In this document: one piece after another, positions 2,088-63,345 of the stretch
Position numbering within the stretch: the first letter of the stretch is position 1
Layout of the letters: every line of letters starts with the position of its first letter
Source: Candidatus Actinomarinales bacterium
GTDB taxonomy: Bacteria; Actinomycetota; Acidimicrobiia; Actinomarinales; Actinomarinaceae
NCBI GenBank assembly: GCA_004213405.1
Contig: SGYR01000001.1
Coordinates: 80,859 to 144,858, forward strand
Reading direction: 5' to 3'
Length of the DNA: 64,000 bases
Translations under genes and position numbers: made by a program
Notes under the pieces: model-generated
Databases searched by the model: none
The model's input: only the letters and a program-made list of their open reading frames with translations
Told to the model about the DNA's origin: nothing

Positions 2088-2978
2088 TTAAAGCGAATTG
2101 ATAAATAAATTATTTTTTGAAAGATCAATGCTTACATATATATAGGAAATCCACAAAAAATCGGCAATTGCTAGGTGCAATATGCTTAAAGGCAGAACTA
2201 TATTGGATAAAACATTTATGACTCCCAGAAATACAGCAATAATTATTAATATTTGTAATGGTTTAACGCCTACATTATATTTTTTTCTAATCCCAGTTGC
2301 ATAAACGTATAAAACTATCGATAGTGTTGAGGAAATAATCGGGTGTAAAATTCTTAATCTGGTCAACACTTCGGATGTTCTGTCAAAATCTGCTAAAAAC
2401 CCTTCAACAAATGAAGTGCTTGGAAATAAGACATCAGCTAAAGCAGTGATTGAGCCAGTTGCTCCACTTAGAAGAAATAAAGAAGAAATTAACAAAAAGT
2501 TTTTGTTGAACATATTTTTTATGTTCTGAAGATCATCTTGGAGTATTTTATATAATATTGCATAACTCCCTAGCAAACCAAAAGTGTTTACTAAATGAAT
2601 TGGAACTGCAATGACTCTTGGGAGTGAACTATTAAGACCTACCCATTCAAAAATGACAATTACTGCTCCGATTAGCGCTTCAAAAATTACGAAAAAAGTA
2701 AGATAATTAGTTACTATTCTTACCAAAGAGTCTTTTTGAAATTTCCTAGTTTTTGCAAAAATTATCAAAGTAACAACTAATAAAACTCCACTTACGGAAC
2801 GATGGGAAAATTCAATTAATTCTGAAGTATCTGATAATGCAGGAATTATCTTTCCTTTACATGTAGGCCAAGTAGCTCCACATCCATCTCCAGACCCGGT
2901 AGCCCTAACAAATGCACCAGCCAAAATTGAAGCTATTGATAATAAAAGACCTGCTTTTGCGTAAGACTCGACTTTCAC
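2088..2978 (-). CDS. ctaA: heme A synthase (COX15/CtaA family)
   Basis: 296 aa polytopic membrane protein with an N-terminal GSGDGCGATWPTC cysteine pair and conserved His residues. Lies near ctaB and ctaCDEFG. Confidence 0.75.
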   Translation of the reverse strand: MKVESYAKAGLLLSIASILAGAFVRATGSGDGCGATWPTCKGKIIPALSDTSELIEFSHRSVSGVLLVVTLIIFAKTRKFQKDSLVRIVTNYLTFFVIFEALIGAVIVIFEWVGLNSSLPRVIAVPIHLVNTFGLLGSYAILYKILQDDLQNIKNMFNKNFLLISSLFLLSGATGSITALADVLFPSTSFVEGFLADFDRTSEVLTRLRILHPIISSTLSIVLYVYATGIRKKYNVGVKPLQILIIIAVFLGVINVLSNIVLPLSILHLAIADFLWISYIYVSIDLSKNNLFINSL

Positions 2979-3577
2979 AGTAAATTATCTAAAAATGTTC
3001 TAAGTGAATCCCAAAATAAGGAGAATGAATTATAAATAACAATACAAAGCACCAGAAGCAAAGCTGTTGTTTTGAGATTTCGAGTGAAATAAAAACCAAT
3101 TTGTTTTTGATCATATATATATGGCTCTTCATCGGAAAACTCAAGGAGGTTAGTAGTTTGTAGGGGTTTTGTAAGATATTCTTCTAAAGTTTCTTCTTTT
3201 ACCTCAGAAACCTCAACTGATTCATAATCAAAATCATTAAGTGTTGATTCTTTTCTTTGGAAGGTATTTCGAAGTTTATCTATTCTAGTTTGTTTAATTT
3301 GCACATCATCATTTTTTATTGAGAAGAGACTTTCTTCAGTTAATAATGAACCTACTTCTTTTAATTGTTCCGTTGAGAACCCATCAAGCGTATGTGTTAT
3401 TTCGGTACCTAACAATCCTTCAAGAGCATTAATAATTTTTTTATCCGTAGGAAAACTCGTTCCAGCTTCCCATTGCTTAACATCTTTTACTTTTACCCCT
3501 GTAAAAGAAGCAATCTGTTTATTACTTAAGCCCCTATCCGCTTTAAGTCTTTTAAATTCTATTTGAAAATTATTCAT
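2975..3577 (-). CDS. XRE-type helix-turn-helix protein with C-terminal membrane anchor
   Basis: I start it at internal ATG 3577..3575 (MNNFQIEFKRLKADRGLSNKQIASFTGVKVKDVKQWEAG...), because the track's longer ORF (to 3715) runs through the tRNA-Sec gene. Acidic linker, then a single TM (TTALLLVLCIVIYNSFSLFW). Its stop overlaps the ctaA start by 4 nt. Confidence 0.6.
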   Translation of the reverse strand: MNNFQIEFKRLKADRGLSNKQIASFTGVKVKDVKQWEAGTSFPTDKKIINALEGLLGTEITHTLDGFSTEQLKEVGSLLTEESLFSIKNDDVQIKQTRIDKLRNTFQRKESTLNDFDYESVEVSEVKEETLEEYLTKPLQTTNLLEFSDEEPYIYDQKQIGFYFTRNLKTTALLLVLCIVIYNSFSLFWDSLRTFLDNLL

Positions 3578-3628
3578 TACTTTAATTCTATTCAATATAA
3601 TTTTTTTTATATAACTAGTCTTAAGTAC

Positions 3629-3720
3629 GGAGGTGAATGAGCGCCTGGTGGGCTCCACAGTCTTCAAAACTGTTGAAAGGTGTAAAAGTCTTTGGCAGGT
3701 TCGATTCCTGTCCACCTCCG
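3629..3720 (+). tRNA. selC: tRNA-Sec (anticodon TCA)
   Basis: GGAGGTG...CACCTCC acceptor. Anticodon arm ACAGT-CTTCAAA-ACTGT, so anticodon TCA. Long variable arm (AAAGGT/GTCTTT stem). T arm GGCAGG-TTCGATT-CCTGTC. Acceptor plus T stems total 13 bp, as in bacterial tRNA-Sec. About 92 nt with no encoded CCA. Confidence 0.85.
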
Positions 3721-3755
3721 CTACTTTATAAGATATACATGTTTAATATAGAAAA

Positions 3756-59869: not shown

Positions 59870-60604
59870 CTAATTTATGTTTCTCAAAATAACATACAGC
59901 CCAGAAATAATGGAAAAATAAGTTACTGACTGGGCAATGAAACTGTCTGAGACTTTTGAGAAAAGCGAGCTAGAAACTCTAATGCCTACCAAAACAACTG
60001 GAAGAAATAACATAAATAAAAGTAGGTGGTCAATATAAAGATTGCCACTTAGAATTAAAAGAGACAATGTAATCAAAATGCCTATGCTAAATACACTATT
60101 GAGAGAAGGTCTAAATTCCTGAGATTTAGTGTTCCTATAAAGCAAAGCTACAGGAGGACCACCAATGGCTGCAATCATCCCAAAAATACCTGAAAAAGTA
60201 CCTGCAAAAAAGGAATTCAAAGTATTTCTGTTAATTTCCCACCCAAAAAAAGAGCCTGCACCTGCTATAAAAACAATAAGTCCAACAGAGATTGATAAAT
60301 ATTTTTCGGATAAGTTTAATAATAATAAGAGTCCAATTGGTCCTCCTATTAATCGGCCTAAAATAAGTGGCTTGACTTTAGATAAATCAACTTCGTCTTT
60401 TTCTCGGTAAAAAACTCTTAAAGCAAGTGGCAAACCAAGTAACGCGAGCAGTTGAGGCACAAGACTAGGCTCAATTTGAACAATTATTGGTGAAGCAACA
60501 ACAGCAAATCCAAAACCCAAAACGCCTTGAACGGCAGAGCCAATAAAAAGTAATATTGCAATAAAAATTACTTCAAATAGCGTTAAGTCAAACGGTAGAT
60601 TCAA
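59870..60604 (-). CDS. TauE/SafE-family (DUF81) anion permease
   Basis: 244 aa. Typical LLFIGSAVQGVLGFGFAVVASPI N-terminus and an internal duplication. Its TTG start overlaps the stop of the selenoprotein gene (TTGA). Confidence 0.8.
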   Translation of the reverse strand: MNLPFDLTLFEVIFIAILLFIGSAVQGVLGFGFAVVASPIIVQIEPSLVPQLLALLGLPLALRVFYREKDEVDLSKVKPLILGRLIGGPIGLLLLLNLSEKYLSISVGLIVFIAGAGSFFGWEINRNTLNSFFAGTFSGIFGMIAAIGGPPVALLYRNTKSQEFRPSLNSVFSIGILITLSLLILSGNLYIDHLLLFMLFLPVVLVGIRVSSSLFSKVSDSFIAQSVTYFSIISGLYVILRNIN

Positions 60605-60837
60605 CCAAGATCTTCTTCAATTAATTTAAGAATTTCTCCATCTTCTGAGTGTCTTCCAAGTTCTTTTTTTGAAAATAATAATTTTTCATTTAAATGAAAT
60701 TCAAATACTCCACCACCGCTTGGAATTAGTTGAATGTTCGTAACTTTGTTACCGTAAACTTCTAAGATATCTTCAATCGTGCCAACTGCACGAGGTGTGT
60801 AGTTTCAAACTACACAAAATTCAAGTTTGATTTCCAT
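60601..60837 (-). CDS. SelW-like / Rdx-family selenoprotein (CxxU redox motif); UGA at 60807..60805 read as selenocysteine
   Basis: Absent from the ORF track because of the in-frame TGA. My translation is MEIKLEFCVVUNYTPRAVGTIEDILEVYGNKVTNIQLIPSGGGVFEFHLNEKLLFSKKELGRHSEDGEILKLIEEDLG*. It fits the Rdx pattern (IEYC..U....RA...L......V.LIP..GG.FEV...G.L..SK...GR.PE) with U in the CxxU position. The 237-nt span is exactly in frame. Confidence 0.85.
60778..60816 (-). promoter_or_regulatory. candidate SECIS structures at the SelW-like UGA
   Basis: Two structures. (1) A perfect 9-bp palindrome UGUGUAGUU-UGA-AACUACACA with the UGA as its loop (60796..60816). (2) A hairpin U-CGUGC-AGUUG-GCACG-A that begins after an 11-nt spacer downstream of the UGA (60778..60792). 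Confidence 0.5.
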
Positions 60838-60874
60838 AACTAAATACTATCATATAAAAAGTTAAAGGAGTTGA

Positions 60875-62773
60875 GTGTACAACTATTCAGATATATCTTT
60901 AGGAAAATTAGAAGAAGACTTAAAAAATACAATCGAAGAATGTAAAGCTTTGGTTAGTAATATTAAATCTTCTGAAAATATCGATTTATCGAATTTTAAT
61001 GAACTGGAGAGTACAATTTATGACCTTTCTGGACGCATTGCGTTTATGGGAGATGTACATCCAGATGAAAAAATAAGAAATTTTGGAAATGAAGCAGATT
61101 CAAAAATACAAAATCTTGCACTTGAAATATTTAAAGATCAAGGTCTATACGAAAAGTTTAAAGAAATAGAAACTAAAAATTTAGATGAAGAATCGAAAAC
61201 ATTTTATAGAGATTTAGAAATTGACTTCAAAGATGCAGGACATGGTCTATCAGGTGAAAAAAAGGATAGACTCACAGAAATCGAAAAAAAGCTTATAGAT
61301 CTCAGCATTTCTTTTTCAGAAAATATTGCAAAGGACAAAACTGAAGTTATGTTTTTGGAAGATGAACTAAAGGGTCTGAGTCAAAACGAACTTAAAAACT
61401 TGAAGAAAAATAATGATAGTTTTGTTATAACGATGGCATATCCAGACATCAATGCTGTTATGGAAAACTGCAGTGTGAGAACGACTAGAGAAATTGTTTG
61501 GAAAGCTTTTAACAATCGAGCTGTAAAAGAAAATAGTCCGATTCTTGAAGAAGCTGTTCAACTAAGAAATGAAAAAGCTTTGTTGTTTGGATTTAAAACT
61601 TGGGCTGAATATAGATTACAGAATAGGATGGCAAAGTCACCGAAAAATGTAACGTCAATGTATGAAAGCTTGATTCCAAAATTACAAAAAGCAGCTGAAG
61701 TAGAAAAAAGTGAACTTGCTATAGATAACATCGAAATTTCTGATATAACACCTTGGGATATACGTTATTTTATTTCAAAAGAAAGAAGTAAAGTAAGCAA
61801 TATTGAGAATAGTGAATTAAAAAAATTCTTTTACATACATGATGTGAAAACTGAAATGTTTAAAGTTTGTGAAGAAGTATTTGATTTGCATATAAAACCT
61901 GAATCGAATGAAACTGCATGGCATGAAGATGTTGAGCTTTGGTCTTTATGGGAAAAAAATGGTCAACAATTAGCATATTTTTATTTAGACCTTTATCCAA
62001 GAGAAGGAAAATTTACACACGCTGCAGTATTCGATATATCTTCTGGTGGATCTAGCAGACAAGAGTTGCCAATATGCTCAATGGTTGCAAATTTCCCAAA
62101 CCCGAACGCAGGAGATGGGTTAATGACTTTCGATGAAGTTGAAACTCTTTTTCACGAATTTGGCCATGTTCTACACAACGGAATTGGAAAATCAAAATAT
62201 ACGAGATTTGTTGGTGCAAACTGTGAATGGGACTTCGTCGAAGCACCAAGTCAAATTATGGAGCATTGGGTATGGAAAGTAGAATGTATGAAAAGAATTT
62301 CAACGCATATTGAATCTGGTGAATCACTGTCTGAAGAAATATGTGAAAAATTAAATAAATCAAAAAATATTGGAGTTAGTTTACTTACACTCAGGCAGGT
62401 TTCATTTAGTCTTGCAGATCAGCATTTACATGGTGAAAACTTTAAAGACAGCCTTTTAGAAATAGAACATGCAGCTCAAAAAGTTACAACAATAACATAT
62501 CCGAAAGATATCAATCATCTAGCAGCTTTTGGACATTTACTAGGTGGGTATGATGCAGCTTATTATGGTTATTTGTGGGCTGAAATAATCGGTGATGACT
62601 TGTTTAGTAGATTTGAAAATGAAGGGGTATTGTCTAGTTCTGTTGGTGTTGACTATAAAAATAAAATTCTAAAGCCTGGAGGAACTGTACCTGCTGAAAA
62701 CATGGTTCAGGACTTTTTAGGTAGAAAATGGAATGATGAGGCCTTTTTTTCCCAAAAAAACTTGTCAAAATAA
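60875..62773 (+). CDS. M3-family metallopeptidase (oligopeptidase A / thimet / Dcp-like)
   Basis: 632 aa. HEFGHVLH zinc motif with a downstream E (EAPSQIMEHW). GTG start preceded by an AAAGGAG SD. Confidence 0.9.
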   Translation: MYNYSDISLGKLEEDLKNTIEECKALVSNIKSSENIDLSNFNELESTIYDLSGRIAFMGDVHPDEKIRNFGNEADSKIQNLALEIFKDQGLYEKFKEIETKNLDEESKTFYRDLEIDFKDAGHGLSGEKKDRLTEIEKKLIDLSISFSENIAKDKTEVMFLEDELKGLSQNELKNLKKNNDSFVITMAYPDINAVMENCSVRTTREIVWKAFNNRAVKENSPILEEAVQLRNEKALLFGFKTWAEYRLQNRMAKSPKNVTSMYESLIPKLQKAAEVEKSELAIDNIEISDITPWDIRYFISKERSKVSNIENSELKKFFYIHDVKTEMFKVCEEVFDLHIKPESNETAWHEDVELWSLWEKNGQQLAYFYLDLYPREGKFTHAAVFDISSGGSSRQELPICSMVANFPNPNAGDGLMTFDEVETLFHEFGHVLHNGIGKSKYTRFVGANCEWDFVEAPSQIMEHWVWKVECMKRISTHIESGESLSEEICEKLNKSKNIGVSLLTLRQVSFSLADQHLHGENFKDSLLEIEHAAQKVTTITYPKDINHLAAFGHLLGGYDAAYYGYLWAEIIGDDLFSRFENEGVLSSSVGVDYKNKILKPGGTVPAENMVQDFLGRKWNDEAFFSQKNLSK

Positions 62774-62838: not shown

Positions 62839-63033
62839 ATGACAGACGGATTAAAAGCTAGTCAAATTAAGGGCGGAATAAGGCCATCAAAAAGTTTTGA
62901 CCAGGGCAGAGTATGTAAAGATGAATCTTGCAGTACTCAACTAAGTATATATAACAAAAGAGATCATTGCTTCAACCACGCTCCAGTGAAATATCCTAGA
63001 GTTAGAGGCAGAATTCTCCAAGAAACTGCTTAA
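62839..63033 (+). CDS. small basic zinc-ribbon-like protein (C-x4-C-x12-C-x2-H), paralog of 37954..38157
   Basis: 64 aa: MTDGLKASQIKGGIRPSKSFDQGRVCKDESCSTQLSIYNKRDHCFNHAPVKYPRVRGRILQETA. SD AAAGGA upstream. Conserved blocks are shared with the dnaK-linked copy. Confidence 0.65.
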   Translation: MTDGLKASQIKGGIRPSKSFDQGRVCKDESCSTQLSIYNKRDHCFNHAPVKYPRVRGRILQETA

Positions 63034-63076
63034 GTTTTAAACCCCCCCTAATGAAATCTCCCCCATGAGATTTCCT

Positions 63077-63108
63077 ATAAGCCCCTATGAAAATAGGGGC
63101 TTATTTTA
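63077..63108 (+). terminator. rho-independent terminator-like hairpin (possibly also an operator) between the small Zn-ribbon gene and copZ
   Basis: ATAAGCCCCTAT-GAAA-ATAGGGGCTTAT followed by TTTTAT. A second hairpin, AAATCTC-CCCCAT-GAGATTT, precedes it at 63054..63073. Confidence 0.6.
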
Positions 63109-63135
63109 TAAACACAACATTATTATTATTCAACT

Positions 63136-63345
63136 ATGGAAACAAAATTTACTGTACCTGAAATTAGTTGTGGACACTGTAAGGAAACAATTGAGTCAAC
63201 TATAAATAGTCTCGAAAATGTTGAAACTGTCAATGTTGATATTGATCAAAAATCAGTAGAAGTTAAGTCTTCTTCAGATCTAGATTTGTCTCTGGTGTCT
63301 AACATGCTAGATGAACAAGGCTATACAGTTGTCGAATCAAGTTAA
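63136..63345 (+). CDS. copZ: copper chaperone CopZ (heavy-metal-associated domain)
   Basis: 69 aa. ISCGHCKETIE (CxxC) in a beta-alpha-beta-beta-alpha-beta sized domain. Confidence 0.8.
   Translation: METKFTVPEISCGHCKETIESTINSLENVETVNVDIDQKSVEVKSSSDLDLSLVSNMLDEQGYTVVESS

Follow-up and report, generated by a model that had tools for sequence, protein, structure and literature searches.

A SelW-like (Rdx family) selenoprotein gene in an Actinomarinales bacterium, with an in-frame UGA very probably read as selenocysteine

Introduction

A short region of the minus strand of an Actinomarinales contig raises the question of whether a gene missing from an ordinary ORF list is translated there through an in-frame UGA, which residue this UGA would specify and which elements of the mRNA would direct its decoding. 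A first-pass annotation of the window, i.e., the whole 64-kb stretch of DNA analyzed here, had described the locus as a SelW-like (Rdx family) selenoprotein gene with selenocysteine (Sec) in the CxxU redox position, and had placed two RNA structures beside the UGA: a palindrome with the UGA as its loop and a SECIS hairpin further 3'. Among marine selenoproteins, SelW-like CxxU proteins have since 2005 been the family known to be most abundant (Zhang, Fomenko and Gladyshev 2005, PMC1088965; Zhang and Gladyshev 2008, PMC2398784). The gene, its UGA, both RNA structures and the flanking genes were followed up computationally, and the results are discussed below.

Results and Discussion

The Gene and Its Product

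The features concerned, in window coordinates, are as follows.

60601..60837, minus strand: SelW-like (Rdx family) selenoprotein gene, 78 codons including Sec codon 11, TGA stop at 60603..60601 (from translation, Pfam Rdx, TIGR02174 and the AlphaFold2 model)
60805..60807, minus strand: in-frame TGA, the very probable Sec codon of C8-V-V-U11 (TGA in 29/29 genome loci and 108/108 overall; aligned to the second Cys of the CxxC in solved homologues)
60875..62773, plus strand: divergent M3-family peptidase gene, 37 nt from the selenoprotein ATG (NCBIfam), given as context only

Translation of the minus strand from 60837 to 60601 confirmed a 78-codon frame with a single internal TGA, located at codon 11 in the CVVU motif. 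The frame begins ATG GAA ATC AAA CTT GAA TTT TGT GTA GTT TGA AAC TAC ACA CCT CGT GCA GTT GGC ACG and ends GGT TGA, and its conceptual translation is MEIKLEFCVV*NYTPRAVGTIEDILEVYGNKVTNIQLIPSGGGVFEFHLNEKLLFSKKELGRHSEDGEILKLIEEDLG* (start MEIKLEFCVV*NYTPRAVGT, end EEDLG*). As had been noted, the gene is absent from the ORF list, which holds no minus-strand ORF of at least 30 aa in 60605-60839, so that ordinary ORF calling misses it. The distance of 37 nt reported to the divergent peptidase start was also reproduced, with a GTG at 60875; the peptidase ORF matched the NCBIfam models for oligopeptidase A (E = 2e-88) and Dcp (E = 2.4e-69), in both cases below the equivalog cut-offs.

The proposed membership in the SelW/Rdx family, with Sec in the CxxU position, was supported both by the Rdx profile and by alignment with CxxC proteins. 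With U replaced by C, the protein matched Pfam Rdx (PF10262) with 58.7 bits, well over the curated cut-off of 22.6 (E = 6.5e-16), with residues 3-74 aligned to profile positions 2-73/74. NCBIfam TIGR02174 CXXU_selWTH was likewise exceeded (44.3 bits vs a cut-off of 34.2), and the narrower equivalog NF041051 SelTWH_Campy was just under its threshold (80 vs 88). A profile of ten family members matched the structures 2fa8, 3dex, 2ljk, 2ojl, 2p0g, 2oka, 2obk and mouse SelW 2npb, with 2p0g bearing the title 'Selenoprotein W-related protein' in the PDB match. When these Cys homologues were compared with the protein, the CxxC of the solved structures fell on the CxxU, C8-V-V-U11 being aligned with the CTQC of 2fa8 and 3dex.

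The AlphaFold2 model, for which the database sequence P0001 with W in place of Sec served as input, had a mean pLDDT of 88.7 and a pTM of 0.79, with the order beta-alpha-beta-beta-beta-alpha (E2-8, H14-31, E34-40, E45-49, E52-56 and H68-81). The redox motif lies after strand 2-8 and before helix 14-31, so that Sec at codon 11 would complete a CxxU redox motif located where strand beta1 ends, just before helix alpha1, in a thioredoxin-like fold. Foldseek comparison of the model with 2fa8, 2obk and 3dex gave a TM score of 0.80 and an rmsd of 1.4, and the best 21 PDB matches were all bacterial SelW-related proteins (TM 0.78-0.82, rmsd 1.4-1.6), followed by MIEN1, mouse SelW and thioredoxins. The bacterial Rdx structures (2fa8 Atu0228, 3dex SAV_2001, 2p0g, 2obk, 2ojl and 2oka) share the fold (TM of about 0.80, rmsd 1.4-1.6) and the location of the redox motif, but they carry CxxC in about 100 residues, whereas the present protein carries CxxU in 78. 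Mouse SelW (2npb), which depends on a eukaryotic 3'-UTR SECIS, is structurally more distant (TM 0.65).

Conservation of the UGA as a Sense Codon

TGA was found at the Sec site in 29/29 loci from the species-representative genome set, among them loci of MAGs labelled Ardenticatenaceae, Anaerolineae, Chloroflexia and Desulfotomaculum, with 42-51% identity. After the addition of 80 metagenome loci, TGA was present in 108/108 loci with a locatable motif, and a Cys codon in none; one of the search patterns for relatives made no use of the Sec-site codon. The TGA is kept down to 42% protein identity in loci from SAGs, MAGs and metagenomes, and the closest relatives (97% identity) are on contigs of single-cell genomes named Candidatus Actinomarina / OCS155.

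The first-pass annotation had named a synonymous-biased substitution pattern across the UGA as the mark of coding conservation, and this pattern was observed on both sides. Many codons vary with the residue unchanged, both 5' and 3' of the UGA, among 63 unique full-length Actinomarina-type genes. In parsimony counts on a tree built from codons 22-78, codons 2-10 had 4/0/21 changes at positions 1/2/3, and codons 12-78 had 100/38/337. The 5' third of the gene is slow at synonymous sites, with 2-3 third-position changes per codon vs 5.5 further on.

The SECIS Hairpin

60777..60793, minus strand: bacterial SECIS hairpin, 6-bp stem UCGUGC/GCACGA, loop AGUUG (60787..60783), 17 nt from the UGA to the loop, -8.5 kcal/mol

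Folding of the 43 nt 3' of the UGA returned UCGUGC-AGUUG-GCACGA as the sole structure. The bacterial SECIS consensus comprises a loop of 3-9 nt, a stem of 4-16 bp, a UGA-to-loop distance of 16-37 nt and an MFE of -7.5 kcal/mol or lower, with G at loop position 1 or 2, usually followed by G or U (2026 review, PMC13188914). The hairpin agrees with all four of these published criteria (5-nt loop with G at position 2 and then U, 6 bp, 17 nt and -8.5 kcal/mol) and its pairs covary, which upholds the earlier claim of a SECIS 3' of the UGA. The 11-nt spacer given with that claim is correct if the U-A closing pair is counted; for the CGUGC stem as it had been named, the spacer is 12 nt.

Among 31 distinct sequences, 100% of the cells of the SECIS helix held standard pairs. 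The closing pair, which joins Pro15, through its synonymous third position, to the first position of codon 21, was U-A in 24 sequences, C-G in five, G-C in one and U-G in one, and a second variable pair alternated between G-C and G-U. Arg16 CGT, Ala17 GCA and Val18 GTT were invariant in 63/63 unique genes; Thr20 was ACG in 62/63, with a single ATG that is still G-U paired, and showed no third-position change. Four- and six-fold codons elsewhere in the gene displayed a synonymous diversity of 0.3-0.67. Every distant lineage has a hairpin of 4-7 bp with a 3-5-nt loop in the same place, and the terminal TGA is followed by no comparable hairpin (-4.0 kcal/mol, z -0.12).

The hairpin is short, and its energy z-score against shuffles was a modest -1.34 in a 43-nt context and -2.76 in a 22-nt context; a folding energy of only -6.6 kcal/mol was obtained for the region in lineages with the G-U pair, short of the limit of -7.5. 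The comparative evidence for the SECIS is stronger than that from folding energy. The Rfam scan, whose coverage of bacterial SECIS elements is poor, returned only tRNA-Sec and no SECIS at this position, and a search of the window for further SECIS copies or CxxU/UxxC genes gave none that was convincing.

The SECIS of E. coli fdhF is likewise a hairpin within the coding sequence that begins about 11 nt after the UGA, and its minimal element, reportedly described by Liu et al. in 1998, is the upper stem-loop about 11 nt after the UGA. The two differ in the loop, which is GGUC(U) in fdhF and AGUUG or AGUUA here, with no bulged U evident. A GGUCU loop as in fdhF is present in three distant SelW-like loci (L027, L090 and L107).

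The Palindrome around the UGA

60796..60816, minus strand: 9-bp palindrome with the Sec UGA as its loop; lineage-specific, mostly a by-product of the C-V-V-U-N-Y-T codons, not required for recoding

The perfect 9-bp palindrome with the UGA as its loop exists as described, UGUGUAGUU-UGA-AACUACACA (60816..60796), with a loop of 3 nt. Its stem folds at -8.7 kcal/mol, an energy equalled by 0/200 shuffles. The suggestion that it could compete with the SECIS was not borne out: a gap of 2 nt separates the end of the palindrome from the start of the SECIS, the helices share no nucleotides and both are present in the MFE and centroid folds, so that the two do not compete.

The possibility that the palindrome is a selected cis-element with a lineage-specific role alongside the SECIS, either as part of an extended recoding signal or by regulating early elongation when a leaderless mRNA is translated, was assessed by synonymous randomization in 21 lineages and by pair counts. 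In most Actinomarina clades the palindrome was more stable than the synonymous randomizations (p 0.010-0.053). Val9 was GTA in 58/58 CVV sequences, with no synonymous change, and Tyr13 was TAC in 57/58, whereas Tyr28 varies freely. One G-C to A-U double change was found, in the L020 clade, and the Val at position -2 is also GUA in three Chloroflexi-type loci. Against such selection, the amino-acid sequence alone, with synonymous codons randomized, averages about -4 kcal/mol, and the palindrome exists because the codons for Cys8/Thr14, Val9/Tyr13 and Val10/Asn12 are mutually reverse-complementary. The palindrome has decayed to -1.6 kcal/mol (p 0.84) in the L016/L017/L086 subclade and to -2.9 kcal/mol (p 0.44) in the L020 subclade, both of which have kept the UGA and the SECIS, and 12 of the 13 distant lineages either lack it or give no significant result for it. 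Pairing was found in 92.5% of the cells of the helix; it is broken at the inner and outer pairs, and for the innermost and outermost pair, which are free to change, parsimony gave 5 and 6 events, respectively. The slow synonymous change described above spans the whole 5' third of the gene and is not specific to the palindrome.

The geometry of the ribosome also bears on this point. The codon in the A site can be read only if a helix that spans it is open, and the palindrome straddles the decoding site in just this manner; it would have to be melted for the UGA to be decoded and would not belong to the recoding signal. As a conserved recoding element of the family, the palindrome was rejected on the basis of the synonymous randomization in the 21 lineages and the pair counts. 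A selected, lineage-specific role was considered unlikely, and the palindrome is regarded as mostly a by-product of the protein sequence.

Sec Decoding and the Genetic Code

3629..3721, plus strand: tRNA-Sec gene (selC), anticodon UCA (ARAGORN; Rfam RF01852, 75.4 bits vs a gathering score of 47)

The tRNA that decodes the UGA of codon 11 would come from this selC gene. By the known bacterial mechanism, SelB-GTP-Sec-tRNA(Sec) would bind the apical loop of the SECIS and deliver the tRNA as the UGA enters the A site, and the terminal UGA, which is followed by no such hairpin, would act as a stop. The 64 kb of the window contain no selA, selB or selD, with no SelB-type GHVDHGK motif and none of the three among the scanned ORFs. 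The presence of these genes in the lineage is a reported one, from a preprint in which selA, selD and selC together with a divergent selB were found in 84/84 complete Actinomarina genomes (bioRxiv 10.64898/2026.04.03.716425).

The G+C content of the window is 32-36%. Under table 11, 51 long ORFs were found and 91% of the window is coding, with TAA, TAG and TGA as stops of 31, 12 and 8 ORFs, respectively. Because TGA ends 8 of the 51 long ORFs in a window that is 91% coding under this table, UGA is a normal stop here and has not been reassigned.

Two other accounts of the internal UGA were given almost no weight. If it were a real stop, a sequencing error or the lesion of a pseudogene, a 10-residue peptide or no product at all would be made, in keeping with the fact that standard ORF calling yields no gene at the locus; nevertheless, the TGA recurs in all 108 independent loci, purifying selection with third-position bias extends over the 67 codons past it, the part 3' of it has no start codon of its own, and a tRNA-Sec gene is present in the window, which together leave this account a negligible probability. 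A genome-wide reassignment of UGA to Trp or Gly (code 4 or 25), with a residue other than Sec, finds an echo in public protein catalogues that list a product of 84 aa in which each TGA is rendered as W, but these entries are a gene-calling artefact in which both TGAs are read through to the next TAA, the site is the catalytic Cys of the family, a dedicated tRNA-Sec lies in the window and table 11 accounts for the eight TGA-terminated ORFs as given above, so that this account is just as improbable.

Selenocysteine is very probably the residue specified by the in-frame UGA, with the help of the conserved downstream hairpin. With high confidence, the locus is regarded as a functional gene of Candidatus Actinomarina whose product is a SelW-like (Rdx family) thiol/selenol oxidoreductase of 78 residues and whose UGA is decoded as Sec via the downstream SECIS.

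Upstream Region and the TauE/SafE Permease Gene

60844..60852, minus strand: extended -10-like motif TGATAGTAT, 6 nt 5' of the ATG, without a Shine-Dalgarno sequence; probable leaderless promoter
59870..60604, minus strand: TauE/SafE-family permease gene, 244 aa, whose TTG start (60604..60602) overlaps the TGA stop of the selenoprotein gene as TTGA (Pfam TauE PF01925, 77.3 bits)

No Shine-Dalgarno sequence was found upstream of the selenoprotein ATG, and a scan for the two-hexamer sigma-70 consensus returned no promoter upstream of the gene. The motif TGATAGTAT or TGATACTAT occurs 6-7 nt 5' of the ATG in most Actinomarina-type lineages, even where another gene lies upstream; deviating motifs were found in the L020 clade (TATAGT/TAGTAA, 9-11 nt before the ATG) and in L087 (TGATAAGAT). 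An extended -10 element close to the start, without a Shine-Dalgarno sequence, is typical of actinobacterial leaderless transcripts, and the selenoprotein mRNA is probably leaderless. The first-pass annotation had argued that the divergent promoters must overlap coding sequence or each other. This is plausible, as the -10-like motif places the -35 region in the start of the peptidase gene, only 37 nt lying between the divergent starts.

At the 3' end of the gene, the residue of codon 78 varies (G/D/V/S) while its third base is always T, and codons 74, 75, 77 and 78 showed 0 third-position changes. The TTGA overlap was seen in four divergent Actinomarina clades (L001, L016, L020 and L075), and a terminator scan found none between the selenoprotein gene and tauE. 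The mRNA would run on into the TauE/SafE permease gene, and the stop/start overlap suggests coupling; the two genes are probably co-transcribed and translationally coupled via TTGA. Pairing of Rdx with TauE was absent from the Chloroflexi, Desulfotomaculum and deep-ocean lineages beyond Actinomarina.

A wider reading of the locus would combine a leaderless mRNA, whose first 61 nt form a two-hairpin recoding module (a UGA-presenting hairpin and the SECIS), with TTGA coupling to a TauE/SafE anion permease. This combination is regarded as unlikely. If it were true, the transporter could work together with the selenoprotein as a functional unit, e.g., for sulfite, selenite or another oxyanion, and this would provide a first physiological handle on a bacterial Rdx protein.

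Separately, it was considered whether the 'K07090 selenoprotein' of the preprint could be the TauE gene read through the upstream TGA. In the present window no such ORF exists, as only two codons lie between this TGA and a TAA.

Relation to Known Selenoproteins

The SelW-like selenoproteins of marine metagenomes (PMC1088965, PMC2398784) belong to the same Pfam family and share the CxxU motif, the small size and a SECIS that immediately follows the UGA, with no essential difference from the protein studied here; the genes described there were not assigned to Actinomarina, and neither a leaderless-type upstream region nor a TTGA overlap with tauE was described. Three of the related loci found in the present analysis are AACY contigs, from the same sequencing project as the work of PMC1088965, and near-identical fragments are named 'selenoprotein W-related protein' by JGI.

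About five predicted selenoproteins per Actinomarina genome were reported in the deep-Sep preprint (bioRxiv 10.64898/2026.04.03.716425). The most widespread of them was a 78-aa 'uncharacterized' family with a single Sec, present in 59 + 35 of 113 genomes, for which no UniRef90 or KofamScan assignment was obtained and no SECIS was found. That family shares the organism group, the length and the single Sec with the gene described here and, as judged from length and prevalence only, is very probably the same gene. It differs in having been left unassigned and without a SECIS, whereas the present protein is placed in the Rdx/SelW-like family and its SECIS is defined.

Significance

The finding is correct but known in kind, as this is the commonest known type of marine bacterial selenoprotein, and knowledge of selenocysteine decoding itself is unchanged by it. 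The increments are the family assignment for the 78-aa protein of the preprint, an explicit SECIS with covariation and the probable coupling to tauE. The practical value lies in annotation, given that ordinary gene callers skip the selenoprotein gene and that public catalogues carry a mistranslated protein with Trp for Sec and a 6-residue tail. Placement in SelW/Rdx and definition of the SECIS close an annotation gap for what is very probably the most widespread 'uncharacterized' selenoprotein of a bacterium that ranks among the most abundant in the ocean, and the invariant overlap with the TauE/SafE gene offers a modest new hint as to what bacterial SelW-like proteins do.

Genomic context of the SelW-like gene

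The stop codon of the SelW-like selenoprotein gene overlaps the start of a permease gene on the same strand:

59870..60604, minus strand: TauE/SafE permease gene, whose TTG start overlaps the selenoprotein TGA stop (TTGA, 60601..60604)

This TTGA overlap was found to be invariant in 63 unique genes, despite a variable last selenoprotein residue. No ORF reading through an upstream TGA into the TauE/SafE permease gene was found within the window. The orthology group K07090 is presumably a TauE-type family. In a preprint on predicted selenoproteins in Actinomarina genomes, K07090 was matched by the third-largest predicted selenoprotein group (bioRxiv 10.64898/2026.04.03.716425).

On the opposite side (60853..60874, plus-strand view), the GTG of the divergent M3 peptidase is preceded at 4 nt by an evident Shine-Dalgarno sequence, AAAGGAG, whereas the selenoprotein gene lacks one. 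The -10-like sequences of the two genes appear to coincide in a single AT-rich stretch of 20 nt, one on each strand. The selW-like/tauE/lnt cluster was also seen to adjoin copper-homeostasis genes, both in the window (62839..63345, plus strand) and in the related loci L016 (395..2461) and L020 (415..2493), the latter two on the minus strand. In the window these include:

63136..63345, plus strand: CopZ-like chaperone gene, beside the cluster

A Cys/His-rich 64-aa ORF preceding the CopZ-like gene in the window matched no family. The place of the M3 peptidase as divergent upstream gene is taken, in clades L016 and L020, by a gene for a protein of ~690 aa that bears a GMTCAACAARIE metal-binding motif at its N-terminus and is probably a P-type ATPase.

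The window also carries the gene for the selenocysteine tRNA:

3629..3721, plus strand: tRNA-Sec gene (selC), CCA not encoded

It is overlapped by a mechanically called ORF (2975..3715, minus strand), the N-terminal extension of which is probably spurious.

Public records of the SelW-like protein

The gene of L025 (NYXO01000052.1), binned as 'Methanobacteriota archaeon ARS96', is almost identical to that of the L020–L024 Actinomarina clade, and protein entry P0062, a truncated copy, was deposited as 'Flavobacteriaceae bacterium TMED206'; both source contigs are likely mis-binned Actinomarina. In L064 (956..1027), a Sargasso/GOS contig, a displacement by 1 nt immediately before the start puts TGG where ATG is expected; the copy is probably damaged or contains a read error.

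The length given for the selenoprotein in public protein catalogues (entries P0001–P0079) is 84 aa: Trp occupies the Sec site and a tail of 6 residues is appended (window 60583..60837), both TGAs being read through as far as the next TAA, in the manner of translation table 4. Hundreds of member sequences are represented by these mistranslated entries.
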